64,000 bases of DNA from an uncultured Planctomycetales bacterium (GCA_964648665.1 CAZYOA010000007.1:4943-68942); one strand, 5' to 3'; positions 9,626-25,441 are shown, counted from the stretch's first letter. The notes: a model not told the origin generated them from the letters alone. Translations and numbers: made by a program.

Positions 9626-9643
9626 ATATTTGCCATTTGAAAT

Positions 9644-10723
9644 ATGAACAAAAATATAAATAAACAACCTTATAGTCATTTAAAGATCCTTTGGCATCCT
9701 GATAAGCTTCAGGCTTTAAGGGATGGTGTTATGACAGCTCCCCTCTATGTAAGAATAAAGCCAACGAATCGATGTAATCATCGATGTTTTTATTGTAGCT
9801 ATGCGGATAAGGATTTGAAGTTAAGAGAATCTGTTCAATCTTTTGATGAAATTCCATGGAAAATATTAAAAGAAGCTATTTCAGATTTGGCGGACATAAA
9901 GATAAAAGCTGTTACGTTTAGTGGTGGGGGAGAGCCTTTAATGTACCCTTATATTGAAGACGCCTTTAAGTTGATTTTAAAGAAAAAGATTGATCTTTCT
10001 TTGATTACAAATGGACAGTTGCTTTGCGGAAAGAAAGCAGATTTGTTATCTCGGGCAAAATGGGTAAGAATTTCAATGGATAGTTGCAAGTCAAAAACAT
10101 TTTCTAAGATTCGAGGAATTTCGGAAAAGAGTTTTCATGTTATTGCAACTAACATTCGAGCATTTGCAAAGAAGAAGAATAAAAGTTGCGAATTAGGCAT
10201 TAATTTTGTTGTGACTCATCAAAATGCAGATCAAGTTTATGATATGGCAAAATTTGTTAAAGGTTTGGGCGTTAATCATATTAAATATACAGCTCGAATT
10301 ACACGCAATTTATTTGCATATCATAAACCATTTAAGGATATAGTTGTTGAGCAAATTTATAAAGCTCAAAAAAAATTTGGTGATTCTACTTTTAAAACTG
10401 TTAATAAATATGAAGATGATTTTGTGCTTTCGATGAAGGCAAAACGAACATATCATTTTTGTCCAATGGTTCAAGTTTTGACGGTTATTGCCGCTGATTC
10501 TAAAGTTTATCTGTGTCACGATAAGGCGTATGTTCCAAGTGGAGAAATTGGCGATTTAAAGAAGAAGATGTTTAAAGAAATTTGGTTTTCATCAAAAACA
10601 AAGAAAATATTTAAGAATCTTGACCCAGTAAAACAGTGTCGGCATCATTGCGTTTATGATCAACGCAATATTTTTATTAATCAGATTATTTCTAAGCCAG
10701 ATAGCCATGCTAACTTTATTTAA
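9644..10723 (+). CDS. radical SAM enzyme (second)
   Basis: CX3CX2C motif CNHRCFYC, FSGGGEPLMYP, and Cys-rich C-terminus (CPMV..CHDKAY..CRHHC). Confidence 0.7.
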   Translation: MNKNINKQPYSHLKILWHPDKLQALRDGVMTAPLYVRIKPTNRCNHRCFYCSYADKDLKLRESVQSFDEIPWKILKEAISDLADIKIKAVTFSGGGEPLMYPYIEDAFKLILKKKIDLSLITNGQLLCGKKADLLSRAKWVRISMDSCKSKTFSKIRGISEKSFHVIATNIRAFAKKKNKSCELGINFVVTHQNADQVYDMAKFVKGLGVNHIKYTARITRNLFAYHKPFKDIVVEQIYKAQKKFGDSTFKTVNKYEDDFVLSMKAKRTYHFCPMVQVLTVIAADSKVYLCHDKAYVPSGEIGDLKKKMFKEIWFSSKTKKIFKNLDPVKQCRHHCVYDQRNIFINQIISKPDSHANFI

Positions 10724-12254
10724 AAATCTATTTTATAAAACTTTCAATTCAAAATATCGCATATTGGATATAGGAATTTTTGTTGGCTATGCAATATTTA
10801 CATTTTTGCTTGTTCTTCGTCATGAGCCATATATGGATGAGGCGCACTGTTGGCTTATCGCTCGCGATAGCATAAGTATAATTCATTTGATAAAGTTAAT
10901 CCCTTGGACAGGTCAGCCAATTTTATGGAATTTTATTTTATTTCCGTTTGCTCATCTAGGTTTTCCTTTTATCCTGCAGCAATTGTTAACTTGGGTTGCA
11001 GCTGTTTTAATGGTTGGGATTTTTGTATTTCGTTCACCATTTCCTAGATTTGTAAAATATGCATTTGTCTTTTCATTTTGGGCGATTTATGAATATGTCG
11101 CGGTTGCAAGAAATTATGGGTTGACGGCGGCACTACTTTTTCTTGTTGCTGTAATGTATAAGGATCGTTTTCAAAAACCAATTTTGTATGCTGTTTTTGT
11201 TGCCCTTCTTTTTAATTCACATTTCTTTATGTTTTTTATATCAAGTGCACTGGTAGGTGTTTATGCTTGGGAAATGATTCAAGATAAGAAAATTACTAAA
11301 AAAACTTTAATGGCTTTAAGCTTAATGTGCTTAACAGGATTTTTTTGTTTCTTTACAGGAACAATTTTTCCAGAGGGCCATCTTCAGTATAAAGAGATTG
11401 TTATCCCTAATTTTACTTATCCAGCTGAAATCTTTTCAAGAGCATTCTTTCCTCAAGAAATATTTTCGTCATTTTCTCTTTCAGCGATTTCTGCTGGTAT
11501 AATTCTTCTTATTTCATTCTTTCTTTTAGCGCGAATGCCAATTCCTTTCTTTATTCTCAATGTTTGTTTTTGGGGGTCATGGTATATTTCTGCATTTCGA
11601 TTTCATGAGTTTGGAGATCGTCATTGTGGATTAGTTTTGATGCAATTTATCTTTGTTCTATGGCTTACGTACTTATATAAACCGATGATTGTAAAAACAA
11701 AGTTTTTGCAGTGGATAAACAGGATTTCTTTTAAAAAAATACGTATTTTAATTTTGATTTTACTTGCATTGGCGCTGGGTTTTTCGGTTCAGAGATCTTA
11801 TCTATGTGCACGACTAGATTGGCAGTATCCTTTTTCAGCCTCTAGGCAAATGGCAAGTTTTATCAAAGAGATGCCAGAAGGCGTTGTTGCAAATAAAATA
11901 ATTGTTGGTTTTCCACCAGCTTCGATGGCGCCGGTTTCGATTTATTTGCCTGATTGGAAATTTTGGTATCCGGATATTGAAGATTTTGGAACATATTATA
12001 TGTTGAGTTCTTATCGAGATTCCAAAAAAGGAATGAGTCCTACTGAAATTATTGGTACAGCCGGAAAAAGATTTGGCGATCTATCGAAGATATTCTTTCT
12101 TTTTCCTCGTCCCTTGGAAGCGAAGCATGCATTTGGTTATGAATTTTATCTGGTTAAAGCTGCAAGTCCATTTTTAGTTGGGTACGGGGGAGAAAAGTAT
12201 TTCTTATATAAACCTGTTTTTGTGGGACCTTTTAATAAAAATACAGTAAAGTAG
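10707..12254 (+). CDS. polytopic membrane protein, ArnT/PMT-like GT-C glycosyltransferase candidate
   Basis: About 12 hydrophobic helices. An acidic motif sits in the first extracytoplasmic loop (HEPYMDEAHCWLIARD), as in GT-C enzymes. ATG 10707 is preferred over the track start 10656, which overlaps the upstream gene by 68 nt. Confidence 0.4.
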   Translation: MLTLFKNLFYKTFNSKYRILDIGIFVGYAIFTFLLVLRHEPYMDEAHCWLIARDSISIIHLIKLIPWTGQPILWNFILFPFAHLGFPFILQQLLTWVAAVLMVGIFVFRSPFPRFVKYAFVFSFWAIYEYVAVARNYGLTAALLFLVAVMYKDRFQKPILYAVFVALLFNSHFFMFFISSALVGVYAWEMIQDKKITKKTLMALSLMCLTGFFCFFTGTIFPEGHLQYKEIVIPNFTYPAEIFSRAFFPQEIFSSFSLSAISAGIILLISFFLLARMPIPFFILNVCFWGSWYISAFRFHEFGDRHCGLVLMQFIFVLWLTYLYKPMIVKTKFLQWINRISFKKIRILILILLALALGFSVQRSYLCARLDWQYPFSASRQMASFIKEMPEGVVANKIIVGFPPASMAPVSIYLPDWKFWYPDIEDFGTYYMLSSYRDSKKGMSPTEIIGTAGKRFGDLSKIFFLFPRPLEAKHAFGYEFYLVKAASPFLVGYGGEKYFLYKPVFVGPFNKNTVK

Positions 12255-12261
12255 AATTATT

Positions 12262-12918
12262 ATGTCTGAAATTAATTTGCTTAAAAATTATCCTCAAACA
12301 AAAAGAAATCTTGATCAACGCATCGAAGAGAAAACAGAAGATGTTCGATTGATTGCGCGAGAATTCGGGAAAGATTTCTTTGATGGTGATCGAAAATATG
12401 GATACGGAGGGTATTTTTATAATTCAAGATTTTGGCAACCTGTTGTCTCAGATTTCAAGATGTATTATAGTCTCTCATCAAGTAGTCGTATTTTAGATGT
12501 TGGGTGCGGTAAGGGGTTTATGCTTTATGATTTTATGCAATTAATGCCCGGTATTAAGATTCGCGGAGTTGATGTATCTGAATATGCTATTGATAATGCA
12601 AAACAAGAAGTAAAACCTTTTTTAGAGATTTGCGATGCATCAAGTTTACCGTTTGAGGATAGTTCATTTGATTTGGTCATTTCAATCAACACTGTTCATA
12701 ATCTAGAAAGACAAAAGTGTTCTAAAGCGATTCAGGAAATTCAAAGAGTATCAAAAAAAGATTGTTTTATTACTGTTGATGCTTATCAAAACGAAGAAGA
12801 AAAAAAGAAGATGGATGCGTGGAATTTAACAGCCTTAACATATATGTCGGTTGATGAGTGGAAAGAATTCTTTGAAGAAGCTGGGTATCAAGGGGATTAT
12901 TTCTGGTTTATACCATAA
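12262..12918 (+). CDS. class I SAM-dependent methyltransferase
   Basis: Motif I ILDVGCGKGFML, with post-I and motif II (DLVISINTVHN). Confidence 0.7.
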   Translation: MSEINLLKNYPQTKRNLDQRIEEKTEDVRLIAREFGKDFFDGDRKYGYGGYFYNSRFWQPVVSDFKMYYSLSSSSRILDVGCGKGFMLYDFMQLMPGIKIRGVDVSEYAIDNAKQEVKPFLEICDASSLPFEDSSFDLVISINTVHNLERQKCSKAIQEIQRVSKKDCFITVDAYQNEEEKKKMDAWNLTALTYMSVDEWKEFFEEAGYQGDYFWFIP

Positions 12919-12946
12919 AATAGAAATTTTAAGGAAATTTAAGAGA

Positions 12947-13900
12947 ATGAATCAAGCAACAAGAAAAAAACTTTTTTTATCAATGCTTAAAATTCGTAGA
13001 GTTGAAGAGCAAGTTGTTTCTGTTTATGGTCAGAAACAAATGCGTACACCAACTCATTTATCGATTGGGCAAGAAGCTGTAGCTGTTGGTGTTTGTGGAG
13101 CCTTAAAAAAGAATGATCAGGTTTTTGCTTCGCATCGATGTCATGCGGCATTTTTAGCTCGCGGTGGATCTGTTGATCAGTTTTTCTTGGAGATGTGTGG
13201 GCGAAAAGGGGGAATTAATCAGGGTCGAGGGGGATCGGCTCATCTTTCGGATTCTTCAATAGGATTCTTTTCTTCACCAATTTTAGGTGGCATGGTTCCT
13301 GTGGCAACAGGGGCAGCTCTTTCATTTCAATTAAATAAGACGAAGAATGTTGCGGTTGTTTTCTCTGGTGATGCAGGATTGGAAGAAGGTGTTTTTGCTG
13401 AGAGTGTAAATTTTGCTCTTCTTAAGAAACTTCCTATTATTTTTATTTGTGAAAATAATTTGTATTCAACAAATACTCATATTCGTTATCGACAGCCTAA
13501 AATTCCAATTTTTAAAAGAGTTTCAGGTTTGCTTAAGCCAAGGCAAGTTGATGGTAATGATGTTCAAAAGGTTTATGCAGCTGCTAAAAGTGTTGTAGAT
13601 TCTTGCCGAGAAGGAAAAGGGCCATTTTTTTTAGAATTCTTAACGTATAGATTTAGAGAACATGTTGGACCTTTGTACGATTATAATGTTGGATATCGTA
13701 CGAAAAAAGAAGTGTTTGATTGGGAGAAGAAATGTCCTGTTTTGCAGAGTAAAAGGAAAATATTGAAAGAAAAGATTATGAGTGCGAAAGCGATTGAGCT
13801 TGTGGATCAGAAACTGATTGCTGAATTTAAACAATCTTATGTAAAAGCACTTAAAGGTTCGTGGCCGGCTAAAAAAGATTTGGCTAGAGGAGTGTATTGA
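12947..13900 (+). CDS. ThDP-dependent 2-oxoacid dehydrogenase/acetoin-dehydrogenase-type E1 alpha subunit
   Basis: N-terminus LFLSMLKIRRVEEQV..THLSIGQEAVAVG. ThDP motif GDAGLEEGVFAESVNFALLKKLPIIFICENNLYS. ATG 12947 is preferred over the track start 12851. Confidence 0.75.
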   Translation: MNQATRKKLFLSMLKIRRVEEQVVSVYGQKQMRTPTHLSIGQEAVAVGVCGALKKNDQVFASHRCHAAFLARGGSVDQFFLEMCGRKGGINQGRGGSAHLSDSSIGFFSSPILGGMVPVATGAALSFQLNKTKNVAVVFSGDAGLEEGVFAESVNFALLKKLPIIFICENNLYSTNTHIRYRQPKIPIFKRVSGLLKPRQVDGNDVQKVYAAAKSVVDSCREGKGPFFLEFLTYRFREHVGPLYDYNVGYRTKKEVFDWEKKCPVLQSKRKILKEKIMSAKAIELVDQKLIAEFKQSYVKALKGSWPAKKDLARGVY

Positions 13901-13902
13901 TT

Positions 13903-14940
13903 ATGGCTAGACAGATGACATATGCACAGGCAATTTCTGAGGCAACGGTTCAAGGAATGCAAAAAGATTCGAATGTTCTTGTTATGGGTTTGGGTGTCGA
14001 CGATCCTAAGGGCATTTTTGGCACAACGCTTGAGGCTCGAAAGAAGTTTGGATTAAATCGCGTTATCAGTACGCCGGCAAGTGAAAATGCAATGACAGGC
14101 GTTGCCATTGGTGCAGCTTTAAATGGGAAAAGGCCTATTTTTGTTCATGCTCGTAATGATTTTATGTTTTTAGCTTTAGATCAGATTATTAATAATGCTT
14201 CAAAGTGGAAATATGTTTATGGTGAGAATTCGAATGTGCCGATTGTTGTACGGGGAATTATTGGAAAAGGCTGGGGACAGGGCCCAACGCATTCTCAAAG
14301 TATTCAGTCTATAGTTGCTCATTTTCCTGGACTATATGTTGCGATGCCGAGCACACCTTATATCGCAAAAGGTATTTTGCTTAAAAGCTTAGAGTTAAAT
14401 GTTCCTGTTGTTATTTTTGAGCATAGAAGGTTGTATGATTTTAAACAAGATGTTCCGACGGGGAAATATGTTCTTGATTTTGGAAAAGCAAAGATTTTTA
14501 AGAGAGGAAAAGATGTGACTGTTGTTGCAACATCGATTTTGGTTCATCAGGCTTTAAGGGCAGCTAAAATTGTTTCTAAGTTTGGAATTAGTGTCGAAGT
14601 TGTTGATCCTATTACAATTTCTCCGTTAGATGAAAAAACGATTATTTCTTCGGTTAAGAAAACAGGACGCCTGGTGTGCGCAGATACAAGCTGGCTTCGC
14701 TGTGGTGTTGCAAGTGAAATATCGGCTGTTGTTGCCGAAAAGGCATTTCAGTTTTTAAAAGCGCCAATTAAACGAATTGCTTTGCCTGAGTGCCCATGTC
14801 CTGTATCGCGTCAGCTAGAGGATTTCTTTTATAAAGATTATCAAGATATTGTTCGTGCGTGTTTTCAATCTGTAGGCAAGAAAATGCCAGTTAATTTGAT
14901 TAAAGAAAAAGAAGAAGATCCTTTTTTAGGTCCCTATTAA
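13903..14940 (+). CDS. E1 beta subunit (transketolase-like pyrimidine-binding + C-terminal domains)
   Basis: MTYAQAISEA..VLVMGLGVDDPKGIFGTT..VISTPASENAMTGVAIGAAL is typical of E1 beta. It lies immediately downstream of E1 alpha. Confidence 0.75.
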   Translation: MARQMTYAQAISEATVQGMQKDSNVLVMGLGVDDPKGIFGTTLEARKKFGLNRVISTPASENAMTGVAIGAALNGKRPIFVHARNDFMFLALDQIINNASKWKYVYGENSNVPIVVRGIIGKGWGQGPTHSQSIQSIVAHFPGLYVAMPSTPYIAKGILLKSLELNVPVVIFEHRRLYDFKQDVPTGKYVLDFGKAKIFKRGKDVTVVATSILVHQALRAAKIVSKFGISVEVVDPITISPLDEKTIISSVKKTGRLVCADTSWLRCGVASEISAVVAEKAFQFLKAPIKRIALPECPCPVSRQLEDFFYKDYQDIVRACFQSVGKKMPVNLIKEKEEDPFLGPY

Positions 14941-14962
14941 TTCATAAAATTTAAGGTATTGC

Positions 14963-16027
14963 ATGAAAAGCTTTAAAAATCAACTTTTTCATCTAAAGCA
15001 TGAAATTTTAACAGAATTGTTGTATCGCATTCCAGGATTGTTACCTCATCGCTATGTTTTTATTCTGACAAATTTATGTAATCTTAATTGTTCTTTTTGT
15101 TTTCAGAAGAAAACAAGATCTCCTGACGCTATGTTGACTGAGGATTGGCTAAATTTAGCTAATCAACTTCCTAGCTATGCACGCGTGACGTTAACGGGAG
15201 GCGAGCCTTTAATCTTCGAAGGATTTGATCGAGTTTTTGATCAGGTCGCTTCGCGATTTGATTGTAACATGATTACAAATGGTATTTTGTTAACGGAAGA
15301 AAAGATTGATCGAATGCTTTCATATCCGCGCTTTAAGATTTTAGCGATTTCCATTGATGATATCGGCAATCATTCAAGGGGTGTTTCTCGGGTGCAATGG
15401 GATCATGTGAAAAAAATGATTCAATATTTCAGAGAAGCGAAGAAGAAAAAGAAATCGAAATGCCTTTTGGATATTAAAACAATTATTCTTGATGAGAATG
15501 CGGATCAACTTTTTGAGATTCATAAATATTGTATTGAAAAATTGCAATGCGATAATCACTCAATACAATTTCTAAAAGGATCATCTCTTCAACATGCAGA
15601 TGTTATGGTTAAAATGGAGGATATCTTTTTAGAAGCAAAGGCTTCGGTTTATAAAAAGTTTGATATCATTCTAGGTCAAATTGATAAGATTCGTAGTTAT
15701 GCTCAAAAGTCTAAGAAAAATGTTTTTTTACATCCCAAAGTTCTTGATTTGACAAGCAATGATCCTGTTTCAAAGATTTCTTATTTGAATGAAGAAAAGC
15801 ATATTAAGGATAGATTTTGTTTATGCCGATTTCCGTGGTCGAGTGTTCATGTTAATTCTGATGGTCATCTGTTTCCGTGCATGGCTGTTTCTATGGGCAA
15901 TGTAAAAAATGAAAGTTTAAAATTAATTATTGGTTCAGAATCTTCTAAAAAATTTAGAGAGATTATAAGAAAGGAAAAAACTGTCAACGGCTGCAATCGC
16001 TGTGGATGGTTGCGCCCTGTTTTATGA
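14963..16027 (+). CDS. radical SAM enzyme with SPASM/twitch-like C-terminus (third)
   Basis: CNLNCSFC CX3CX2C motif, LTGGEPLIF, and C-terminal CRFPW..FPCMAV..CNRCGW. Confidence 0.7.
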   Translation: MKSFKNQLFHLKHEILTELLYRIPGLLPHRYVFILTNLCNLNCSFCFQKKTRSPDAMLTEDWLNLANQLPSYARVTLTGGEPLIFEGFDRVFDQVASRFDCNMITNGILLTEEKIDRMLSYPRFKILAISIDDIGNHSRGVSRVQWDHVKKMIQYFREAKKKKKSKCLLDIKTIILDENADQLFEIHKYCIEKLQCDNHSIQFLKGSSLQHADVMVKMEDIFLEAKASVYKKFDIILGQIDKIRSYAQKSKKNVFLHPKVLDLTSNDPVSKISYLNEEKHIKDRFCLCRFPWSSVHVNSDGHLFPCMAVSMGNVKNESLKLIIGSESSKKFREIIRKEKTVNGCNRCGWLRPVL

Positions 16028-16806
16028 AAAAAAAATATATGCATAAATTGTTACCCAAATTATTTCATATTTTAAATTATGATACTTTTCATGGAAAAAT
16101 ATTCTCGTTTCTTGTGTCATTATTTCAAATGATTAAGATATTTATTTGTCGTCCTTCTTTAAAATGGTTTTCTTTGTTTAAATTAGTTTTTATTGTTAAG
16201 CCGTTTTATTCTCAGCTTTCAGCTCAACGATTGCTTAATCTTTATCGGCTTGGCGAAGAAGTAAACGCTCTTGGCTTAAAGGGAGATGTGGTAGAGTGTG
16301 GTGTTTGGAACGGTGGCTCTGCAGCAATGATAGCCAGAGGGCTTGATATGCATAAATCTCTAACAAGCCGAAACATTTGGCTTTTTGATTCGTTCGAAGG
16401 CCTTCCTCAGCCAACTGAGCGAGATGATAAGCAAAACAATAAGTATTATTTTGAAGGCGTATGTACAGGAAATGAAAAGAATGTGGATATGATTTTTAAT
16501 AAAATGAACATTTCAAAAGAAAGAGTAAAAATTGTCAAAGGATGGATTAAAGATACTTTTTTAAATACAAAAATTGAAGAAATAAGTCTCTTGCATGTTG
16601 ATATGGATTGGTTTGATTCTATCGAGCTTGTATTAGAACATTTTTATGAGAATGTTGTAAAGGGTGGTTTTGTTGTTATTGATGATTATTATACGCTGCA
16701 AGGCTGTCATGATGCGGTGAATAGTTTTTTAAAAAGAAAAAATCTTCAAGATAGCGTAGATATTATTAAAGTTGATTGGAACGGTGTATATTTTTGCAAA
16801 CCTTAA
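16024..16806 (+). CDS. TylF/macrocin-O-methyltransferase-family methyltransferase
   Basis: GDVVECGVWNGGSAAMIA, LFDSFEGLP and LHVDMDWFDS motifs. ATG 16024 forms an ATGA overlap with the upstream stop. Confidence 0.6.
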   Translation: MKKKYMHKLLPKLFHILNYDTFHGKIFSFLVSLFQMIKIFICRPSLKWFSLFKLVFIVKPFYSQLSAQRLLNLYRLGEEVNALGLKGDVVECGVWNGGSAAMIARGLDMHKSLTSRNIWLFDSFEGLPQPTERDDKQNNKYYFEGVCTGNEKNVDMIFNKMNISKERVKIVKGWIKDTFLNTKIEEISLLHVDMDWFDSIELVLEHFYENVVKGGFVVIDDYYTLQGCHDAVNSFLKRKNLQDSVDIIKVDWNGVYFCKP

Positions 16807-16824
16807 GGATTTATATTTAAAATT

Positions 16825-17739
16825 ATGAAAAATAACAGAAATATTATAGTCTTGGGATCGACTGGGTTTATTGGAAGCGTAATTTTCAAGCATCTTCAAG
16901 AGATTTTTAAAAAAGATAATGTTGCGGGGTTTTCGTCTAAGAACTGTAATTTATTTAATTTACCTATTGTCAAAAAGAAGTTGTTGTGTTTAAAGAAGAA
17001 GGATGTCTTGATTATCGCATCGTCGATATCAAGAACATCAGAGAACAGTCTTGATTCGATGCAAAAGAATATTTTAATGGTGGAAAATATTATAAAAGGG
17101 CTTAATCAAGAATTTATTGGGCAGATTATATATTTAAGTAGCGTCGATGTCTATGGTGTTAAGAAAAAGGACAAAGATGATCTGTCTCTTCGAAGAAAAA
17201 CAATGGATGAGAGTAGCTCGTTGTTTATTGATGATTATTATAGTATGGGGAAAATGGTTAGTGAATTCTTGCTTAAAAATCAATCATTGTCCGGTGGATT
17301 TTCTTTATCTGTTTTGCGCCTCCCAGGAGTTTATGGCTTAGGGGATAAACAAAAAAGTTTAGTTGGTTTGTTTTCTAAGAAATTCTTAGATGATGGGTTT
17401 GTTGAGATTAAGGGAACTGGGAAAATTTTGAGAAATTATGTCTATGTTGAAGATATAAGTAAGGTTGTTGAAAAATGCATCAAGAAAAAAACAAAAGGCA
17501 TTTTTAATATTGTTTCGAAGAAAAGCTTATCGATTTTGGCAATTGCCAAAATCTTAAAGAAATTGTTAAATCCAAAAGCAAAAATTAATTTTAAAACTAA
17601 ATCTATTTCATCAGAAAAAAGAGATCGAGATATTCTTTTTAACAATAAGAGGCTAGAGACTGTTTTTGGAAAAACTGTTGTTTTTTCAATGGAATCTGGA
17701 ATTAAAGAATATTCTTTAAATTATAAAAATGAGTGTTAA
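16825..17739 (+). CDS. NAD(P)-dependent sugar epimerase/ketoreductase (RmlD-like)
   Basis: VLGSTGFIGS Rossmann motif and YSMGK catalytic YxxxK. Confidence 0.6.
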   Translation: MKNNRNIIVLGSTGFIGSVIFKHLQEIFKKDNVAGFSSKNCNLFNLPIVKKKLLCLKKKDVLIIASSISRTSENSLDSMQKNILMVENIIKGLNQEFIGQIIYLSSVDVYGVKKKDKDDLSLRRKTMDESSSLFIDDYYSMGKMVSEFLLKNQSLSGGFSLSVLRLPGVYGLGDKQKSLVGLFSKKFLDDGFVEIKGTGKILRNYVYVEDISKVVEKCIKKKTKGIFNIVSKKSLSILAIAKILKKLLNPKAKINFKTKSISSEKRDRDILFNNKRLETVFGKTVVFSMESGIKEYSLNYKNEC

Positions 17740-18937
17740 TCCTTTCGCCTATATGCAGAGAACATGTTGTTCAGTTTGCAACGAAAAGCTTATTCGTTCA
17801 GTGCTTGATTTTCCTGCGCTTCCGGTTTTGACAGGCGTTTTTACTAAGCAAAAACCTGAAACACAAGATCTTGGATTGGATCAAAGTTTTTTCTTTTGTT
17901 TAAAGTGTGGTCATGGGCAGATTTCAACTGTTATCGATCCAAGTTTTCTGTACAATCAAGATTATAGCTTCAAGACATCTTCGAGTAAGACGGCAACGCG
18001 AGAATTAGAAAAATTTGTTAATTTTCTAGAAAAAGTATCTTTAAATCGTATTTTTAATAAAGTTGTTGATATCGGATGCAACGATTTATATTTACTGAAA
18101 CGTCTTAAGAATAAAGCTAAAGGTTTTTGTGGAGTCGATATGATGCAAGGCTTTGAGGATAGCCAAGAAAATAATTCATCAATAAATTTGATTGCAAAAA
18201 AGGCTGAAGATCTTCAGCCAGATGATTTTGAAAATGAATGTCCTGACCTTGTTGTATCTACACATATGCTTGAACATGTTCAAGAACCAAAAGAAGTTCT
18301 TTGTAACTTGATGCGTTGCGCAGATAAAGATGCTTTGTTTATTTTTGAAGTTCCTTGTTTAGAGCAGATGCTTCAAAGCTATCGATTTGATCGTATTTTT
18401 CATCAGCACTTGCAATATTTTTCATTAACATCTTTTAAAAATCTTTTGAGTCTTGCTGGAGCTGAATATATTGATCATTGTTACAATCCTTCTCATTGGG
18501 GATCTATGATGATTGCATTTAAAAAGAAAACAAATTCTTCTGGTGGAGAAGAGATTTGTTCTAATAAAGATTTGTCAGATGAAATAAGATCTCGATATGA
18601 TATTTTTAGAAAAAATATGAATATAATTTCTAAGGAAATACGCCAGCAAGAGAAGGGATCTGTTGTTGGTTATGGTGCGTCTAATATGCTTCCGATTTTG
18701 TTTTATCATCTTGGGCTAAGAGACAATCTTCTTGATTTAGTTTTCGATGATGATATTATGAAAAATGATCTTTATTTCCAAGGGCTTGGGGTGCGTGTTG
18801 AGAATTTAAGTCAACTTGAACGATTGAAGCATAAAGTTGTTGTTGTGACGGCCTTGGATCATATTGATATTATCACAAAAAAGGTTTTAAATTTTTCTGT
18901 AAATAAAGTTATCGTACCATTGCAAGATTTACCTTAA
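17729..18937 (+). CDS. NDP-hexose C-methyltransferase-type enzyme (TylCIII/NovU-like architecture)
   Basis: N-terminal Zn-ribbon-like CCSVCNEK..CLKCGHG, a central class I methyltransferase motif VVDIGCNDLYLL, and an extra C-terminal domain. This is the three-part layout of sugar C-methyltransferases. Confidence 0.55.
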   Translation: MSVNPFAYMQRTCCSVCNEKLIRSVLDFPALPVLTGVFTKQKPETQDLGLDQSFFFCLKCGHGQISTVIDPSFLYNQDYSFKTSSSKTATRELEKFVNFLEKVSLNRIFNKVVDIGCNDLYLLKRLKNKAKGFCGVDMMQGFEDSQENNSSINLIAKKAEDLQPDDFENECPDLVVSTHMLEHVQEPKEVLCNLMRCADKDALFIFEVPCLEQMLQSYRFDRIFHQHLQYFSLTSFKNLLSLAGAEYIDHCYNPSHWGSMMIAFKKKTNSSGGEEICSNKDLSDEIRSRYDIFRKNMNIISKEIRQQEKGSVVGYGASNMLPILFYHLGLRDNLLDLVFDDDIMKNDLYFQGLGVRVENLSQLERLKHKVVVVTALDHIDIITKKVLNFSVNKVIVPLQDLP

Positions 18938-18948
18938 AGGAGTTTTAA

Positions 18949-19725
18949 ATGGACTTAGGATTAAAGAATAAGATAGCGCTGATTACAGGGGCTGGCAGAG
19001 GCATTGGAAGGGCTACAGCATTAGGTCTCGCTAAAGAAGGATGCAAAATCGTTGTTGTTTCTCGAACAAAAAACGATCTTGATCAAGTGGTTAAGGAGGC
19101 CGGGGGAAAGAAAAAAGGACATGTTGCCATTGCTCTTGATTTAACGAAGAAGGGATCGCCTAAGAAACTTGTATCATTTCTAAAAGCTAAAATTGGTTTG
19201 CCTCAGATTATTATTCATAATTTAGGCGGTGCGTTAAATGTTCGAGACCATTTTTGTTCAATGGCGGATTTTAATAAAATTTATCGACTTAATTTTGAAG
19301 TTGCTGTTGAGCTTAATCTCGATTTGCTTCCTATTATGCAAAAAAAGAAATGGGGAAGAGTTATTCATGTTTCTTCCATAGCGGGTGCTGAAAATCAAGG
19401 GCCCATTCCCTATTGTTGTGCAAAAGCAGCTTTAAATGCATATGTCAGAAGCATGGGTGGCGTTGTTGGTCGCGACAATGTTGTCTTGTCTTCCGTGTTG
19501 CCAGGAGCTGTTTTTACAGAAAAAGGATATTGGGATCATCAATTTAAGCATAATCGTTCTTCGGTTAAGAAATTCTTGAGTGATCGTCAACGTATTGGAC
19601 GATTTGGAACGCCTGAAGAGATTGCAAATATGGTTGTTTTTTTGAGTTCAGAGTTAGCTTCTTTTAATACTGGGAGCATTATTCCTATTGATGGAGCGCA
19701 GGGAAGAGGGTATTTTGAGCAATAA
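18949..19725 (+). CDS. short-chain dehydrogenase/reductase
   Basis: TGAGRGIGRA cofactor motif, catalytic YCCAK, NLGG. Confidence 0.8.
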   Translation: MDLGLKNKIALITGAGRGIGRATALGLAKEGCKIVVVSRTKNDLDQVVKEAGGKKKGHVAIALDLTKKGSPKKLVSFLKAKIGLPQIIIHNLGGALNVRDHFCSMADFNKIYRLNFEVAVELNLDLLPIMQKKKWGRVIHVSSIAGAENQGPIPYCCAKAALNAYVRSMGGVVGRDNVVLSSVLPGAVFTEKGYWDHQFKHNRSSVKKFLSDRQRIGRFGTPEEIANMVVFLSSELASFNTGSIIPIDGAQGRGYFEQ

Positions 19726-20503
19726 TATTATCAATAAAGATCTTAGAAAAAAGATTATAGAAGTTGTATATGGTGCCCAAGAGGGACATATTACAAGTTC
19801 ATTTTCTATTATTGATATTTTGTCTTATCTTTATGAAAATATTCTAAAATTTGATAGTAAGAATCCGTCTTGGGAAGATAGGGATTATTTTATTTTAAGT
19901 AAAGGGCATGGCTGTGTAGCACTTTATGTTATTTTGCAAAAATATGGATTTATACGAGAAGAAGATTTAAAACAGGTGAGTTCCAAAAATGGTATTTTAG
20001 GTGGACATCCTGACATAACCAAGGTGCCAGGTGCTGAAGCATCAACGGGATCGCTAGGTCACGGCATTGCGACGGCTTTAGGAGTGGCACTAGGTTTAAG
20101 AATCAGATCGAAGCACAACAAAGTTATTGTTTTGATTGGCGATGGGGAAAGTAATGAGGGAACGGTGTGGGAAAGTGCGCTTGTTGGCGCTAATTTAAAG
20201 CTGGGAAACCTATGTTGCATTGTTGACAATAATGGTTCTGCCGCACAAGTTTTGCCTGTGCCAGAGATGCAAAAGAAATGGGATGCCTTTGGCTGGGAAA
20301 CTTATGCGATTGACGGTCATTCTGATCAAGAGATTTCGGATGTTTTTAGTAAAATAAAGTTTGAGCACCATACAAAACCAAAAGTGATTATTGCAAATAC
20401 TCTTAAGGGCAAAGGAGTTAGTTTTATGGAAGGCCATGGAGCTTGGCATGCGAAGATTCCTAGCGTTGATGAGTTTGAGAGCGCACTTAAGGAGCTAAGC
20501 TGA
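19688..20503 (+). CDS. transketolase, N-terminal (ThDP-binding) subunit
   Basis: EGHITSSFSIIDIL, LSKGHG, and ThDP motif GDGESNEGTVWESALVGANLKLGNLCCIVDNNG. The true start may be TTG 19715, because 19688 overlaps the SDR gene. Confidence 0.8.
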   Translation: MMERREEGILSNNIINKDLRKKIIEVVYGAQEGHITSSFSIIDILSYLYENILKFDSKNPSWEDRDYFILSKGHGCVALYVILQKYGFIREEDLKQVSSKNGILGGHPDITKVPGAEASTGSLGHGIATALGVALGLRIRSKHNKVIVLIGDGESNEGTVWESALVGANLKLGNLCCIVDNNGSAAQVLPVPEMQKKWDAFGWETYAIDGHSDQEISDVFSKIKFEHHTKPKVIIANTLKGKGVSFMEGHGAWHAKIPSVDEFESALKELS

Positions 20504-21426
20504 TGTCTAATCTAAGAAATGATTTTCCTAAAGTTGTTCATGAAGTTGGTCTTAGGGATCCAAATTTAGTTGTTTTAGTTGGAGACATCAGTCATTATCG
20601 TCTTCAAGGGTTTGCAAAAGATTGCCCAGGACGATATTACAATATTGGCATATGTGAGCCAACGATTGTTAATATGGCAGCAGGATTGTCGAAGATAGGT
20701 TTTTATCCAGTTGTTCATACCATCGCACCTTTTATTGTTGAAAGATCTTTTGAACAGATTAAAATTGATTTTTGTTATCAAAAATTAGGGGGAAATATTA
20801 TTACAGTTGGAAGCGCATTTGATTATGCGTATTTGGGTTGCACGCATCATTGCTATAATGATTTTGCTTTACTTTCGACCTTGCCCAATGTCGAACTTGT
20901 TTATCCTGCAAGTTATGAAGAGCTTGATTTACTTTTTGGACAAACATATAACAACGAATTCTTAACTTATTTTCGCGCGCCAATGTATGGACATGAAGTT
21001 TCATTTAAACCAAGCGATATTACAATTGGAAAAGCAATTCAGGTTCAAGAAGGTGAAGATCTAACTCTTGTGGCAGTTGGAACACAATTAAAATCAGCTA
21101 AAGAAGCAGCGGATGCTTTAAAAGAGCAAGGGATAAGTGTTGATTTAATTTATATTCATACTGTTAAGCCTTTGGATGCACAAACAATAAAAAAGAGTTT
21201 GAAGAAAACAAAGAAATGTTTGGTTATTGAAGAGCATGGAATTTTCGGTGGCGTTTATGATGCTGTGCTTAGGATTTCGCAAGAGTTAGACGAGATAAAG
21301 TGTTTTTCTATTTCGATTCCAAATGATTTTATAAGAGATTATGGAACATATCAGGATTTTTGTTTGAAGTTAGGGTTTTGCCAAGGTGGGGTTCTTAAAA
21401 AAATTAAAGAAGAGGTTTTGATATGA
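20503..21426 (+). CDS. transketolase, C-terminal (pyrimidine-binding) subunit
   Basis: YNIGICEPTIVNMAAGLS.. motif. ATG overlaps the upstream TGA, giving a split-transketolase pair. Confidence 0.8.
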   Translation: MSNLRNDFPKVVHEVGLRDPNLVVLVGDISHYRLQGFAKDCPGRYYNIGICEPTIVNMAAGLSKIGFYPVVHTIAPFIVERSFEQIKIDFCYQKLGGNIITVGSAFDYAYLGCTHHCYNDFALLSTLPNVELVYPASYEELDLLFGQTYNNEFLTYFRAPMYGHEVSFKPSDITIGKAIQVQEGEDLTLVAVGTQLKSAKEAADALKEQGISVDLIYIHTVKPLDAQTIKKSLKKTKKCLVIEEHGIFGGVYDAVLRISQELDEIKCFSISIPNDFIRDYGTYQDFCLKLGFCQGGVLKKIKEEVLI

Positions 21427-22142
21427 AACAATATTTCTCGATTATTGTGCCAGCGTTTAATGAAGAAAAACTTATCACAGACTCAATTGATTCTTTGGTT
21501 GATAACTTTGAGTCTACAAATACAAATTATGAAATTTTAGTTTTCAATGATGGCAGTACTGATCGAACAGGTGAAATTATTGATGAAATTTCTAAAAAGA
21601 ATAAGAATGTTAGAGCTATCCATCGAAAGGTTAATCGTGGAATTGGAGCAAGTACTCGCGAAGCTATAAAAATAGCTAAAGGAGATTGCATCGGTTGGTT
21701 TCCAGGGGATAACAGTATTACGAAAGAATCATATCGAGAATTGATTGTTTTTGCAAAATCTATGAGTGAAGATATTTTAATTACGTATTCTAAGAATAAT
21801 AGAAAACGACCTTTTTTGAGGCGTAATTTATCTAATATCTACACAGCTTTATTAAATTTCTTATTTCGATTAAATCTTAAATATTATAATGGCGCGTCTA
21901 TTCTTCCTGTTGATGTTGTTAGAAAATTTAATCTTCAGGCGAATTGTCATGACACGTTTGCTGAAGTTGTTGTCTTGACTATAAAATCTGGATGTTCATA
22001 TACGCAGCGTCCTTTTATACATAAACCTGGAACAGACAAAACATCTAAGGCTTTGTCCCTAAGGAATGTTTTTAATATTGCGAAGACATTTATGATTTTG
22101 ATAAAAATAGTATATTTCTCAAAACCCAATCAATCAACTTAA
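21423..22142 (+). CDS. family 2 glycosyltransferase (polyprenyl-phosphate sugar synthase-like, DPM1/GtrB type)
   Basis: FSIIVPAFNEE..VFNDGSTDRTGEII.. GT-A signature. ATGA overlap with the upstream gene, and directly precedes the third YfhO-like gene. Confidence 0.7.
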   Translation: MKQYFSIIVPAFNEEKLITDSIDSLVDNFESTNTNYEILVFNDGSTDRTGEIIDEISKKNKNVRAIHRKVNRGIGASTREAIKIAKGDCIGWFPGDNSITKESYRELIVFAKSMSEDILITYSKNNRKRPFLRRNLSNIYTALLNFLFRLNLKYYNGASILPVDVVRKFNLQANCHDTFAEVVVLTIKSGCSYTQRPFIHKPGTDKTSKALSLRNVFNIAKTFMILIKIVYFSKPNQST

Positions 22143-22155
22143 CGTCAAAAAGTTT

Positions 22156-24354
22156 ATGACAAAGAAGATCTTTTCTTTTCTAAAGTTTCTCGCTCCAATT
22201 TCTTTTTTAATATTTTTTCTATGGCCGATGGTATCCGGGAAAAAGTTTATTACAAGCGATACATCTGGCATGTTCGCGTTGATAAAGTTTTTCATAGCGA
22301 ACATTAGTTCAGGAGTTTTTCCTTTATGGAATCCTCTTTCAATGTGGGGATGTCCTGTTTTTATTGAGAATTGTTATTTTAGTGCGTATAATCCTGTTTG
22401 GCTTTTGATTTTAATTCTTTATAAGTTGGGGTTGAGTTATTATTTTTCTTTTCTTTTCACCTGGGTTCTTTATTATCTTTCAGGCGTGTTTGGATTCTAT
22501 TTGTTAGCAAAATCTTTTTTTAAGAGTTCTTTTTTAGGGTATATCTCGTTCTTATTATTGTTATTTTCAGCATTTAGTTTCTTATTCTTTTTTCATTCTA
22601 ATCATGTTTTTATTTATGTCCCCTCAATTTGGTTCTTTTATTTTCTTATTCGATTTATTCAAAAACCAGATCGTCCTATGTTGATGGGGTTAGTTTTTTC
22701 TTTAATGATTGTTTCGACAACTTATTTACCGATATATTGGATTATGTTTATGTTTGCTGTATCGTTATTGTGTTTACTTTTATTCTTTGATTCTTTTAAA
22801 AAGTCTTCTTTAGGTGTCTCTTGTTTTATAAAAAAGAATTATATCTTTACTTTAATTTGCTTTTTTATTTTAGGTGTATCTTGTTTTCCACCGCTAAAAG
22901 CATATTTTGCAACATCTGAGAAACAAGTCGTTTTTGTTGAGCGTCATATCCAAAACCCTGAAGAAGCTTTAGAGGAAGGGGCATCTATAAATCTTGAACA
23001 GCTAAAGCGAGTTGCTCTTGAGCCAAAGTATTTCTTAGAACAATTGTTTCCAGAGAGAAAAGATTTAACTAATCGCAATAAAGGAATTTCTTATGTTCCT
23101 ATTTTTGTTTATATTGTCTTACTTTTTAGTTTTATTTTGCCAATTACGAAGCGAAATGTTTTTCTTGCGCTTTTAACAATGCTGTTTTTCTTTATTATTA
23201 TTGGTCCTTTTTCTCCAGTTTATCCGTTTCTTTTTAATGTCTTGCCGTTTTTAAAATTAATTCATGGAATCGCTTTGTTTCGAATGGCGTTATTAATCTC
23301 ACTTATTCTTTTATCTGTTGAAAATCTTAAATTAATCTTAAGTCAGGAACATTTCTTTATAAAGAATGATCGTCCTTGGATGACAATGATTATTCATGGA
23401 GTTTTCTTGATTTTTCTTTTGATGCAAAAGAACCCATTTTGGACTTCATATGGCACAGTTCTTTTAAGTTATGCTTTTTTTATTTGTGCGTTTTCATCGA
23501 ATGAATTTTTAAAGAAGTTTCGTTTTTTAATTTTGTTTTTATGCATTATTCTTCAACCTGCGCAGATTTTCTTAAATTTCTCAAAACATATATATCAACC
23601 TGCACCTAAAGTTCAAGAATCATTTAAAATGCCATTAAATTCTATGAATTTTGTTTATGAGCGACCTGTTATGCAGGGTAAGTCTTCGATACCGGGTGAT
23701 CAGTATTATCAATATTTCTTATCTTTAAGTTCTATGTCTGAATATCCTGAAATGCTTTTATACGGAGGAGGGATGCCTTCTCGCTGGTCGTATCAATTAT
23801 ATGCTTCTTCGTCTGAAAAAATAATTTCAAATTATTTGAAATATCGATTTTTTGTTTATGATTACATTTTACCGGTTTACGATGAACAATTTGATGAAGT
23901 TGTCTTAGAAGATATTTTTAAAAATCAAGAAAACTTAGCATTTATTTCGCTTTCAAAAAGTGATTCTTTAGATCTATTAAATCTTTCTCAGTTTATGAGA
24001 AAGAAAAAGGATGCTTTAGAATTAGCCTTGCCAATCAAAAAGGAAATGGACCAATTCTCAGTTGTATCGTTTAATGCGAATTCAGTCAAAGTTAAAACAA
24101 ATTTTGATAAAAACAAATTTTTAGTTTATAACGATAGTTATTTGCCGGATTGGCGTGTCTTTGTAAACGGGAAGAAACAGAGAGTTTTTCGGTCTAACGT
24201 TGCTTTTAAGGGTGTTGTTTTGCCAGCGGGTGAAAATATTGTTGAGTTTAGATTTAATTTTCTTGGGGGGACGTACATGAACAATGCTATATACCTTGTT
24301 TATATAGTATTCTTTATTCTTATGATTTGTGCATTTATAATGAAGAAAGAATGA
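22156..24354 (+). CDS. YfhO-like polytopic membrane (GT-C type) glycosyltransferase, paralog C (divergent)
   Basis: Same length and architecture as 2824..5040. Conserved landmarks: ..FPLWNPLSMWGCPVF..YNPVWLL at the N-terminus and ..FLVYNDSYLPDWRVFVNGKKQ..FKGVVLPAGEN.. at the C-terminus. Confidence 0.55.
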   Translation: MTKKIFSFLKFLAPISFLIFFLWPMVSGKKFITSDTSGMFALIKFFIANISSGVFPLWNPLSMWGCPVFIENCYFSAYNPVWLLILILYKLGLSYYFSFLFTWVLYYLSGVFGFYLLAKSFFKSSFLGYISFLLLLFSAFSFLFFFHSNHVFIYVPSIWFFYFLIRFIQKPDRPMLMGLVFSLMIVSTTYLPIYWIMFMFAVSLLCLLLFFDSFKKSSLGVSCFIKKNYIFTLICFFILGVSCFPPLKAYFATSEKQVVFVERHIQNPEEALEEGASINLEQLKRVALEPKYFLEQLFPERKDLTNRNKGISYVPIFVYIVLLFSFILPITKRNVFLALLTMLFFFIIIGPFSPVYPFLFNVLPFLKLIHGIALFRMALLISLILLSVENLKLILSQEHFFIKNDRPWMTMIIHGVFLIFLLMQKNPFWTSYGTVLLSYAFFICAFSSNEFLKKFRFLILFLCIILQPAQIFLNFSKHIYQPAPKVQESFKMPLNSMNFVYERPVMQGKSSIPGDQYYQYFLSLSSMSEYPEMLLYGGGMPSRWSYQLYASSSEKIISNYLKYRFFVYDYILPVYDEQFDEVVLEDIFKNQENLAFISLSKSDSLDLLNLSQFMRKKKDALELALPIKKEMDQFSVVSFNANSVKVKTNFDKNKFLVYNDSYLPDWRVFVNGKKQRVFRSNVAFKGVVLPAGENIVEFRFNFLGGTYMNNAIYLVYIVFFILMICAFIMKKE

Positions 24355-25253
24355 GAATATTTATGAAAGTATTTGAGAAAATAAAAAATGGTTTTCCTTC
24401 TTTAAAGTTTATCTTCTTAAGATTTTGGCTTATTTATGCAATTTTCTTTGTTTCATATATATTTTTAGTTGAAGATGGAACGAGCTCTTTTAAAATCAAT
24501 GAAGTGCTTTCAGAAATGCGGGTTGATTCAGATCTTTCTTTTTATGTTAATGAGGGTGTTGAAATCGAGCCAGAAATGCTTTATCAGGCTATTGAGCATT
24601 ATATTTCCATTGGAGAGTCTGTCGGATTTGATGAGTATCTTCTAGGAAATATCGCAGCTTGTTACTTTTCTTTAGGAAATTATGAGAAATCAATTAACTT
24701 TTATAATCAAGCGATTGAAAAGAATCCACTTCTTTACACGTTTTATTTTGATAAGGGAATTATTTATATACGCTTAAAACAATACAAAGAAGCTTTAGTT
24801 TCTTTTGATCAATCAGTGAGTCTGGTGCCTGAAACTATTACTTATTATATTAATTTTTTTGAGAAACTTAATGGAAAAATAGAAAAATCTTTAGATTTCT
24901 CTCAGTTTTCTTCAGAAAAGAAAGCAGAGATGCAGACTCTTTTGCTGGCTGATTTTTATTCAATCCAGAAAAAGATTATTCAGGACATGAGCGTTATAAA
25001 CAAGGAGCTAAAAAAAATCAGAAGGATAACGCGAGACTTAAGATTAAATAAAGAAATTCAGAATTTTGAAAAACGCCTTTTGGTTTATCAAGAAAGACAA
25101 GATTTTAAATATTTTTTGTCTGGCGAAGAGTTAGATCATGATCCAGATAACCAGGGCAGCCAGATTGTTAATTTTTATTTTAGGAACTTTAGAAGTATCA
25201 TGCTTTTCTCTTCCTTACAAAAAAATCTAGTTGATATAAGTAAGAAATTTTAA
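24351..25253 (+). CDS. membrane-anchored TPR protein with C-terminal coiled coil, partner of paralog C
   Basis: ATGA overlap with the upstream stop. TM helix (FWLIYAIFFVSYIFLV). TPR block GNIAACYFSLGNYEKSINFYNQAIEKNP..FDKGIIYIRLKQYKEALVSF is homologous to the other two TPR partners. Confidence 0.5.
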   Translation: MRIFMKVFEKIKNGFPSLKFIFLRFWLIYAIFFVSYIFLVEDGTSSFKINEVLSEMRVDSDLSFYVNEGVEIEPEMLYQAIEHYISIGESVGFDEYLLGNIAACYFSLGNYEKSINFYNQAIEKNPLLYTFYFDKGIIYIRLKQYKEALVSFDQSVSLVPETITYYINFFEKLNGKIEKSLDFSQFSSEKKAEMQTLLLADFYSIQKKIIQDMSVINKELKKIRRITRDLRLNKEIQNFEKRLLVYQERQDFKYFLSGEELDHDPDNQGSQIVNFYFRNFRSIMLFSSLQKNLVDISKKF

Positions 25254-25267
25254 TAATCTTCTATCTA

Positions 25268-25285
25268 TCGTGAAATATTTCACAG
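25268..25285. promoter_or_regulatory. Rex operator-like inverted repeat (box 1)
   Basis: TCGTGAAATATTTCACAG matches the Rex consensus TTGTGAAnnnnTTCACAA at 12 of 14 specified positions. It lies upstream of rex. Confidence 0.6.
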
Positions 25286-25421: not shown

Positions 25422-25441
25422 GATAAATATGGAGAATTCAG

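Follow-up and report, generated by a model that had tools for sequence, protein, structure and literature searches.

A tightly packed operon combines an E1-type enzyme pair and a split transketolase with a predicted role in sugar branching

Branched sugars are rare and antigenic, and as chiral tertiary alcohols they are of practical use. Three enzyme classes that depend on thiamine diphosphate (ThDP) have been connected with the branching of keto-sugars: YerE-like enzymes in lipopolysaccharide, E1-type pairs in actinomycete antibiotics and, as a proposal, split transketolases (PMC12247030). The E1-type branching pairs always add a C2 unit derived from pyruvate, and KbDH-alpha/beta couples pyruvate to ketones in vitro (PMC12247030). 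Split transketolases have been proposed to form the hydroxyacetyl branch of miharamycin and amipurimycin, where they lie beside an oxidoreductase that is thought to make the ketone, and the 13 sequences reported for this type all come from Streptomycetes (PMC12247030). Here we analyse a stretch of 64,000 nucleotides from an uncultured Planctomycetales bacterium (GCA_964648665.1, CAZYOA010000007.1:4943-68942; hereafter the window), in which an E1 alpha/beta pair (12947-14940) and a split transketolase (19691-21426) stand in the same gene array. An earlier, sequence-only reading had drawn attention to 12947-21426 as a place where branched sugars may be made; the miharamycin and amipurimycin transketolases were absent from its background.

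The segment picked out by that reading is only the middle of a longer array, which extends upstream over 5989-12918 and downstream over 21423-25253. All 19 genes of this array are co-directional on the plus strand, as are the YfhO-like and TPR genes upstream of it, and over about 19 kb (5989-25253) successive genes overlap or are separated by at most 28 nt, so that the array is one tightly packed operon. It comprises three radical S-adenosylmethionine (SAM) enzymes, four to five methyltransferases, three short-chain dehydrogenases/reductases (SDRs), a gene similar to glycosyltransferase family 9 (GT9), a family 2 glycosyltransferase (GT2) and a pair of YfhO-like and tetratricopeptide repeat (TPR) proteins. 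All genes named earlier are found where they were then placed or a few codons away at most (the N half of the transketolase starts at 19691, not 19688), and the two ThDP enzyme pairs, then called independent, belong to this single co-directional array. The same gene set is found on a 131-kb metagenome contig (ERZ27317826 k141_694989, here L001; loci fetched for comparison carry an L number). Among named relatives, those closest to E1 alpha (84% identity) and to the transketolase N half (86%) both come from a metagenome-assembled genome (MAG) of Candidatus Omnitrophota and presumably lie on one contig. On balance, we lean towards a model in which the operon tailors a sugar with two ThDP-dependent carboligases that add C2 branches, and in which the product is then transferred via a lipid carrier.

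The E1 pair and its relatives

The two E1-type genes are separated by 2 nt. E1 alpha (12947-13900; PF00676, E value 3.6e-56) has an intact ThDP motif; the GDAG..NN pattern reported earlier is indeed present, with 26 residues between GDA and NN instead of the 27 then counted. E1 beta (13903-14940) consists of a pyrimidine-binding and a C-terminal domain (PF02779 and PF02780, Transket_pyr and Transketolase_C) and retains the conserved cofactor-activating glutamate within TPASEN. A tblastn search with Escherichia coli AceF and Lpd (E <= 1e-5) detected neither E2 nor E3 in the 64-kb window, and Pfam scans of most other window open reading frames of at least 80 aa revealed no E2 or E3 domain, in agreement with the sequence-only reading. 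The same tblastn search readily finds E2 and E3 beside E1 genes in 22 other fetched loci.

How does this E1 pair relate to the E1 components of oxoacid dehydrogenases? Against the NCBIfam equivalog PDH_E1_alph_y, E1 alpha scores 260 bits with a cut-off of 394, four E2/E3-linked control proteins reach 339-455 bits, and four E1 alphas from sugar contexts reach 255-310 bits. A neighbour-joining tree of 160 E1 alphas unites every E2/E3-linked sequence in a single clade; the protein of the window lies outside it, beside those of L006 and L007. Among loci with at least 5 kb of flank on each side, a nucleotide-sugar-type gene (counted as a nucleotidyltransferase, a member of the 4,6-dehydratase family, a DegT aminotransferase, an SDR of the Epi1 family introduced below or a C-methyltransferase) is found nearby in 47 of 53 loci without E2/E3, whereas none of 17 E2/E3-linked loci has one. 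E2 or E3 genes occur within 10 kb in 0 of the 53 sampled E2-less relatives, which lie on the window's side of the tree. A scan of genome contigs with the E1 alpha of the window as its single query yielded relatives of at most 49% identity, the closer ones being retrieved by protein look-ups and a metagenome scan. Because of score, clade and context, we conclude that the pair is not the E1 of a pyruvate or acetoin dehydrogenase; clustering with E2/E3-linked dehydrogenases, the outcome that the sequence-only reading had named as fatal to its proposal, is seen neither in the E1 alpha tree nor in the scores or the gene context. We regard the pair as probably an E2-free sugar-branching enzyme. Its separation from the E2/E3-linked dehydrogenases, together with the position of its relatives amid nucleotide-sugar genes, makes a C-branched-sugar pathway plausible.

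The upstream half of the operon is conserved along with the E1 genes. The order of a radical SAM protein (rSAM_A, 5989-6885; PF04055), the GT9-like gene (6882-7811; heptosyltransferase family, PF01075, 1.5e-12), an extended SDR that we call Epi1 (7808-8803), a 218-aa class I SAM methyltransferase (MT218, 12262-12918; Methyltransf_25/31/11), E1 alpha and E1 beta is kept in L005 (part of a 3.36-Mb contig), L006, L007, L089 and L093, with E1 beta missing from L007. Identities in this core are mostly 52-70%. The first gene, rSAM_A, has orthologues in the same position in all five loci at 35-67% identity (only 35-38% in L089 and L093), and the GT9-like protein is 54-62% identical in relatives; it overlaps each neighbour by 4 nt, so that rSAM_A, GT9-like gene and Epi1 form a trio with mutual 4-nt overlaps, mostly 54-70% identical across the same five loci. 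Orthologues of MT218 (43-69% identity) adjoin E1 alpha/beta in many loci, including those of Pelagibacteraceae, where a smaller set of SDR, 218-aa methyltransferase and E1 pair recurs in the single-cell genomes L012, L046 and L076. A partial version of this SDR/MT218/E1 set occurs in a deltaproteobacterial MAG (L009) and a Methanosarcinales MAG (L011), and two Chloroflexota MAGs (L060, L067) have the SDR and the E1 pair only.

A cultured bacterium also carries such genes. Marinomonas aquimarina CECT 5080 (L071 8220-15849, NZ_FLOC01000001.1) encodes, in this order, an NTP-transferase, a 4,6-dehydratase, E1 alpha, E1 beta, the N and C halves of a transketolase, an unassigned gene and an aldo-keto reductase; LicD, a cytidylyltransferase and two GT2 genes lie in the same locus. 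In paulomycin synthesis, the E1-type Pau11/Pau12 installs an acetyl branch, and an aldo-keto reductase, Pau7, reduces it (PMC4753412). Other genes shift their position relative to the E1 genes: in L168 (3015-6649), E1 alpha and E1 beta are separated by an SDR and a methyltransferase of about 230 aa, and the same two genes stand between E1 beta and a YerE-like gene in L005, L006, L089 and L100. Because of this shifting placement, the data suggest that the SDR and the 230-aa methyltransferase act directly on the E1 product.

Conceivably, the ThDP enzymes could serve another purpose and build a non-sugar substituent, such as an acyloin, a hydroxyalkyl or an amino-alcohol group, from small 2-oxoacids or aldehydes; it would be attached to a glycan or lipid later, and no C-C bond would be formed on the sugar ring. 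E1-type enzymes and those of the acetohydroxyacid synthase (AHAS) type are able to make free acyloins (PMC12247030). The locus is also rich in radical SAM enzymes and methyltransferases, the window is devoid of sugar-activation genes, and relatives add class I/II aminotransferases, zinc alcohol dehydrogenases and B12-radical SAM enzymes. We nevertheless find this quite unlikely, because the E1 pair keeps a tight link with an SDR of the nucleotide-sugar type across many phyla, follows directly after the NTP-transferase and the 4,6-dehydratase in Marinomonas and is accompanied by NDP-sugar genes in the great majority of E2-less loci (the 47 of 53 given above), and because the operon encodes a TylC3/TcaB9-type methyltransferase, a family known to act on NDP-keto-sugars.

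The split transketolase and its place in a modular locus

The second ThDP enzyme is encoded by two overlapping genes, the ATG of the C half coinciding with the stop codon of the N half. The N-terminal, ThDP-binding half (19691-20503; PF00456, 1.1e-38) shows the motif GDGES, 27 residues, NN, and the C-terminal, pyrimidine-binding half (20503-21426) matches PF02779/PF02780. Both have the split transketolase of Carboxydothermus as their best PDB match (N half 6YAK, 222 bits, 8e-65; C half 6YAJ, 141 bits, 3.7e-40). A classical SDR (18949-19725; PF00106/PF13561) precedes them and overlaps the N half by 35 nt, which points to translational coupling; transketolase and preceding SDR are thus as the sequence-only reading had described them. 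The N half belongs to a large and well conserved family, its best 120 matches being 60-86% identical. A DXS-like enzyme was considered and rejected, since the N half matches transketolase far better than DXS.

Aligned with E. coli TktA, the transketolase of the window keeps the cofactor-binding and catalytic residues (equivalents of H26, H66, H100, GDG, NN, H261, E411 and H473). Five further positions, R358, S385, H461, D469 and R520, are those that in the yeast and E. coli structures hold the substrate by its sugar phosphate and C2 hydroxyl. Only R358 is kept, and the other four are replaced (H461 by G and D469 by L; S385 and R520 likewise lost). Both TktA and 6YAJ retain S385, H461, D469 and R520: where 6YAJ reads THAG..EDGASHQ, the window has TVGS..YLGCTHH, and the LGR motif of 6YAJ is matched by no Arg520 equivalent. 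Six further homologues encoded in glycan loci share these replacements; D469 is retained in the protein of Marinomonas. This altered pocket argues against a plain pentose-phosphate role and would fit a different acceptor, without naming one.

Might the transketolase nonetheless be an ordinary pentose-phosphate enzyme, recruited to supply a precursor of heptose synthesis such as sedoheptulose 7-phosphate, while the E1 pair alone does the branching? All its catalytic residues are intact, Epi1 resembles 6VO6, which we presume to be a GDP-heptose dehydrogenase, and a gene of the GT9 heptosyltransferase family is part of the operon; moreover, SIS_2 (GmhA-like) genes are found in L173 and L174, in one case together with an HldE-like kinase/nucleotidyltransferase. 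Against this stand the loss of S385, H461, D469 and R520 in the window protein and six family members but not in the genuine transketolase 6YAJ, the translational coupling of the gene to an SDR, its travelling with a sugar C-methyltransferase, its replacement by a YerE-like carboligase in L122 and L153, and the lack of GmhA and HldE in the window. We therefore judge a mere supply of precursors to be improbable. That the split transketolase itself branches a keto-sugar is, in our estimate, possible, and we put it forward tentatively. Literature searches on transketolases in O-antigen or capsule clusters returned nothing relevant.

The sequence-only reading had called the joint presence of two ThDP systems unusual. 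As a statement of rarity this was wrong, because an E1 pair and a second ThDP enzyme recur together in at least 15 other sampled contigs (L005, L006, L071, L089, L093, L100, L110, L115, L117, L118, L122, L153, L168, L169 and L170). The pairing is met from either side. Three loci sampled by their E1 genes (L110, L115 and L071) contain both ThDP systems, and three of six contexts of transketolase N-half homologues (L168, L169 and L170) include a full E1 pair within 10 kb. Four pairs of E1 alpha and transketolase matches trace to contigs of the same size (13,134, 20,381, 26,260 and 30,751 bp), the last two being L168 and L170. L173, from a Tara Oceans marine metagenome, has an Epi1-type SDR, a C-methyltransferase, an SDR and both transketolase halves in a row, as well as a 217-aa methyltransferase, and has no E1 pair.

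The second enzyme need not be a transketolase. Among loci of the SDR/methyltransferase type with enough flank, 8 of 23 possess a second ThDP enzyme, and in seven of those eight it is a three-domain protein. The one in L005 has as its best match JanthE (8RPH), a YerE-like carboligase, and in L122 and L153 a YerE-like gene has as its neighbours the SDR and the C-methyltransferase by which the transketolase of the window is flanked. A three-domain YerE-like enzyme (about 590 aa, TPP_enzyme_N/M/C) is absent from the window and present in related cassettes. Orthologues of the classical SDR adjoin the transketolase or the YerE-like gene in L110, L115, L122, L153 and L173, and a small GT2 directly follows the second carboligase in the window, L005, L006 and L168. 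Taken together, the gene neighbourhoods suggest two modules. Module A would consist of an Epi1-type SDR, the 218-aa methyltransferase and the E1 pair, to which the SDR and the 230-aa methyltransferase are sometimes added; module B would consist of an SDR, a C-methyltransferase and a second carboligase. Judging from gene content, this second carboligase is interchangeable, a split transketolase in some loci and a YerE-like enzyme in others. Transketolase genes take further forms elsewhere: in an archaeal MAG (GCA_043817815.1; L175) the C half is fused to a SAM methyltransferase domain (10821-12446, 541 aa), and the same locus has a miniature gene pair of E1_dh (209 aa) and Transket_pyr (176 aa) at 16925-18084, a similar Transket_pyr fragment of 173 aa being found in L173.

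A proposed pathway and its delivery arm

Where might the acceptor ketone come from? Epi1 is the most constant neighbour of this E1 clade. It is a member of the GalE family and a candidate nucleotide-sugar C4-dehydrogenase, with 6VO6/6VO8 as its best PDB match (145 bits) and about 35% identity to 6VO6, presumably Cj1427 of Campylobacter jejuni, a GDP-heptose C4-dehydrogenase. Cj1427 oxidises GDP-D-glycero-D-manno-heptose at C4 to a 4-keto sugar (PMC10680097). An Epi1 of the Cj1427 type would thus create a ring ketone, which is exactly what a ThDP carboligase needs, and the acceptor ketone more likely originates from Epi1, which lies outside the coordinates of the sequence-only reading.

Between the two ThDP pairs lie the tailoring enzymes that this reading had listed, and Pfam and PDB matches bear out the radical SAM enzyme, the TylF-like methyltransferase and the TylCIII-type C-methyltransferase. 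The radical SAM/SPASM protein rSAM_C (14963-16027; PF04055 and PF13186) has orthologues of 47-57% identity in L168, L170, L046 and L076, and the TylF-family methyltransferase (16024-16806) matches PF05711 at 5.3e-49. The C-methyltransferase (17753-18937) has the D-mycarose 3-C-methyltransferase 4RV9 and TcaB9 as its best PDB matches, over residues 12-362. Its architecture is that of Methyltransf_13/23/14, Methyltransf_13 scoring 28.4 bits, just below the cut-off of 31.3, and Methyltransf_23 and Methyltransf_14 matching as well; an N-terminal CxxC...CxxC is present in the translation, so that the zinc-binding, SAM and C-terminal domains by which TylC3/TcaB9 proteins are recognised are all found. 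For the extended SDR at 16825-17739 (Epi2; motifs GSTGFIG and YSMGK), the label RmlD-like receives no specific support: the only Pfam matches are Epimerase (PF01370) and 3Beta_HSD, and the PDB matches, to GalE or dehydratases, are weak. Its homologues in L168 and L170, which lie directly upstream of the transketolase, match RmlD_sub_bind. We consider Epi2 a candidate ketoreductase or epimerase.

From these parts we envision the following route. It would start from a nucleotide sugar, probably activated elsewhere in the genome, of which Epi1 would oxidise a ring hydroxyl, probably at C4, to the ketone. The E2-free E1 alpha/beta enzyme would decarboxylate pyruvate on ThDP and place the resulting C2 unit onto the Epi1 ketone, giving a C-acetyl-branched tertiary alcohol. 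The TylC3-type enzyme would methylate a carbon beside a ketone, and the MT218, FkbM and TylF methyltransferases would add O-methyl or other methyl groups. The classical SDR, paired with the transketolase, might make or resolve a ketone, and the transketolase might move a second C2 unit, as a hydroxyacetyl group, to a non-phosphorylated keto acceptor, either at a second ring position or at the carbonyl of the first branch. Epi2 would reduce the remaining ketone, and the three radical SAM enzymes would contribute further tailoring. The GT2 would then load the product onto polyprenyl phosphate, and the YfhO-like GT-C proteins with their TPR partners would pass the sugar to an envelope or protein acceptor outside the membrane. 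The GT9 family membership and the likeness to 6VO6, together with the GmhA-like and HldE-like genes of L173 and L174, hint at a heptose as substrate, although this evidence is weak.

The genes for the last steps have a distinctive arrangement. The small GT2 (21423-22142; 239 aa, PF00535) overlaps the transketolase C half and is a candidate polyprenyl-phosphate sugar synthase, with alignments to the PpgS and AglJ models that are near full-length but weak and below cut-off. Next come a YfhO-like GT-C membrane protein (copy 3, 22156-24354; PF09586), 33-36% identical to copies 1 and 2, and its TPR partner (24363-25253), the last gene of the array. Two more such pairs lie upstream of the array: copy 1 (3-1766; PF09586 in the C-terminal part), whose frame is open at the 5' end of the window and hence truncated, with its TPR protein (1768-2625; TPR Pfam families), and copy 2 (2824-5040; a weak C-terminal PF09586 match and an AGAGGA ribosome-binding site 7 nt before the ATG), with its TPR protein (5042-5917). 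Pairs 1 and 2 are tandem duplicates, the YfhO-like proteins being 68% and the TPR proteins 59% identical. The two are fused in a single protein of 1065 aa in L168, which speaks for YfhO-like and TPR proteins being functional pairs; they recall the eukaryotic TMTC-type GT-C/TPR glycosyltransferases. The window encodes no Wzx, Wzy or ABC exporter, and delivery looks like a lipid-carrier-mediated glycosylation by GT2 and YfhO/TPR proteins and not like the classical O-antigen or capsule route. The YfhO-like gene of four relatives stands behind genes for two proteins of about 170 aa that match no Pfam family (L005 17034-18074, L006 17253-18320, L168 12670-15699 and L170 11724-12757); no counterpart was found in the window.

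Several points weigh against the branching model. The identity of 6VO6 with Cj1427 was taken from the molecule name and is presumptive, and about 35% identity to 6VO6 would in any case fix neither the reaction nor the substrate of Epi1. Among the genes of the window there is none for a sugar nucleotidyltransferase, a 4,6-dehydratase or the heptose pathway. The E1 alpha tree was built by neighbour joining and carries no support values, and the transketolase residues were mapped by alignments at about 30% identity. Finally, the sugar-branching role of split transketolases is itself unproven in vitro (PMC12247030). The claim of the sequence-only reading that the locus makes one or more C-branched, C-methylated and O-methylated sugars accordingly stands in part: clade, context and precedents make it plausible, but the window has neither the genes for sugar activation and 4,6-dehydration nor a Wzx/Wzy or ABC exporter. 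It is very unlikely, on the other hand, that the E1 pair serves an ordinary dehydrogenase complex for pyruvate, acetoin or branched-chain oxoacids with E2 and E3 encoded elsewhere and an incidental place in a glycan operon, for even though Pfam and NCBIfam name the pair as pyruvate dehydrogenase (PDH) E1, the best PDB match of E1 alpha is human PDH E1 alpha (160 bits), the catalytic histidine of the YR..EH motif is kept and our view is limited to 64 kb of the genome, its score falls under the equivalog cut-off, it lies outside the E2/E3-linked clade, its E2-less relatives uniformly lack E2/E3 within 10 kb and mostly stand amid sugar genes, and it is operonic with gaps of 2-28 nt.

The remaining genes of the array lie between Epi1 and MT218. 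They are an FkbM-family methyltransferase (8828-9625; PF05050, TIGR01444), the radical SAM/SPASM protein rSAM_B (9644-10723; PF04055 and PF13186), which is 60% identical to its L006 orthologue, and a polytopic membrane protein of about 515 aa (10707-12254, as called from L001), which has no Pfam or NCBIfam match and whose BLAST match is confined to the copy in L001, from the same contig, with none in related cassettes. After 25253, a gap of 188 nt leads to a Rex-type gene at 25442 (PF06971 and PF02629), where unrelated genes begin. GC content is 30-37% in the window, nearly all genes of which are on the plus strand; a horizontal-transfer island was considered and rejected, as the GC content shows no anomaly. 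Scans of the whole window for Rfam families and tRNAs gave no matches and hence no taxonomic marker, and promoter and terminator scans of 5800-25600 stayed at chance level. Towards the 3' end, an open frame of more than 2004 codons (57987-63998) runs past the end of the window, with HATPase_c (histidine-kinase-type ATPase) at residues 1886-1998 of its visible part as the only Pfam match.

Comparison with known systems

To our knowledge, E1-type branching enzymes have so far been described only from actinomycete antibiotic clusters. According to our survey, both enzyme types are widespread in the envelope-glycan operons found in uncultured phyla, in SAR11 and in at least one cultured bacterium from the sea, which opens a large new pool of carboligases, hints that Omnitrophota decorate their envelope with unusual higher sugars and offers a concrete, testable route to transketolase-type sugar branching, for instance in Marinomonas aquimarina CECT 5080. 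A bolder, and to us rather doubtful, extension is a widespread modular pathway with a double carboligase, in which the E2-free E1 pair and a re-tooled transketolase (or YerE-like enzyme) would act in sequence on one keto-sugar, possibly a heptose, to yield a doubly branched or side-chain-extended higher sugar for YfhO-TPR transfer to envelope or protein. If this were true, it would be the first case of a transketolase family that uses non-phosphorylated keto-sugars for primary glycan synthesis, and the first such case outside Streptomyces.

Compared by gene context, the E1 pair resembles AviB1/B2, AlmDI/DII, Pau11/12 and KbDH in being an alpha/beta gene pair with no E2 or E3, set amid ketoreductases, methyltransferases and aminotransferases. 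The expected reaction would likewise be that of the AviB1/B2 type, addition of a pyruvate-derived C2 unit to a keto-sugar with formation of a tertiary alcohol (PMC12247030, PMC4753412). The setting differs, however: the host is uncultured and the relatives are found in SAR11, Chloroflexota, Oligoflexia, archaea and Marinomonas instead of the antibiotic clusters of actinomycetes, a glycan of the cell envelope is apparently the product, and the keto acceptor probably comes from a 6VO6-like SDR and not from a 4,6-dehydratase.

The split transketolase, compared by description, shares with those of the miharamycin and amipurimycin clusters the two-gene form and the adjoining oxidoreductase in a sugar-tailoring cluster, but its family is abundant in environmental glycan loci, has lost four pocket residues and co-occurs with an E1 pair. 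With 6YAK/6YAJ of Carboxydothermus hydrogenoformans it has in common the two-chain architecture and the ThDP-binding and catalytic residues, whereas 6YAJ keeps the substrate residues of TH..EDG..SHQ and LGR at positions where the window protein shows TVGS..YLGCTHH and no Arg520 equivalent. The YerE-like enzymes (yersiniose and erwiniose; JanthE) provide the parallel of a ThDP-dependent branch on a keto-sugar bound for a surface glycan, the lipopolysaccharide of Gram-negative bacteria, and a YerE-like gene occupies the position of the transketolase in L005, L006, L089, L093, L122 and L153; YerE itself belongs to the decarboxylase/AHAS-type fold family, in contrast to the transketolase-type enzymes of the window.

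For the delivery arm, the closest parallel is the CsbB/YfhO-type glycosylation of lipoteichoic acid in Bacillus subtilis, which combines a GT2 polyprenyl-phosphate sugar synthase with a YfhO GT-C transferase. The window likewise has a small GT2 followed directly by a YfhO-family membrane protein, with the caveat that its YfhO matches are weak and confined to the C-terminal part; it differs in having three YfhO paralogues, each with a TPR partner, and in a host that is probably diderm. Relative to the literature that we found, four aspects are new: the setting in operons for envelope glycans in Omnitrophota, SAR11 and further lineages that are mostly uncultured, the modular way in which an E1 pair is coupled to a second carboligase that can be exchanged, a defined pocket change in an abundant transketolase family, and the delivery arm of GT2 and YfhO-TPR proteins. 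The chemistry itself would be of known kinds, in a previously undescribed variant that recurs in many environmental bacteria.

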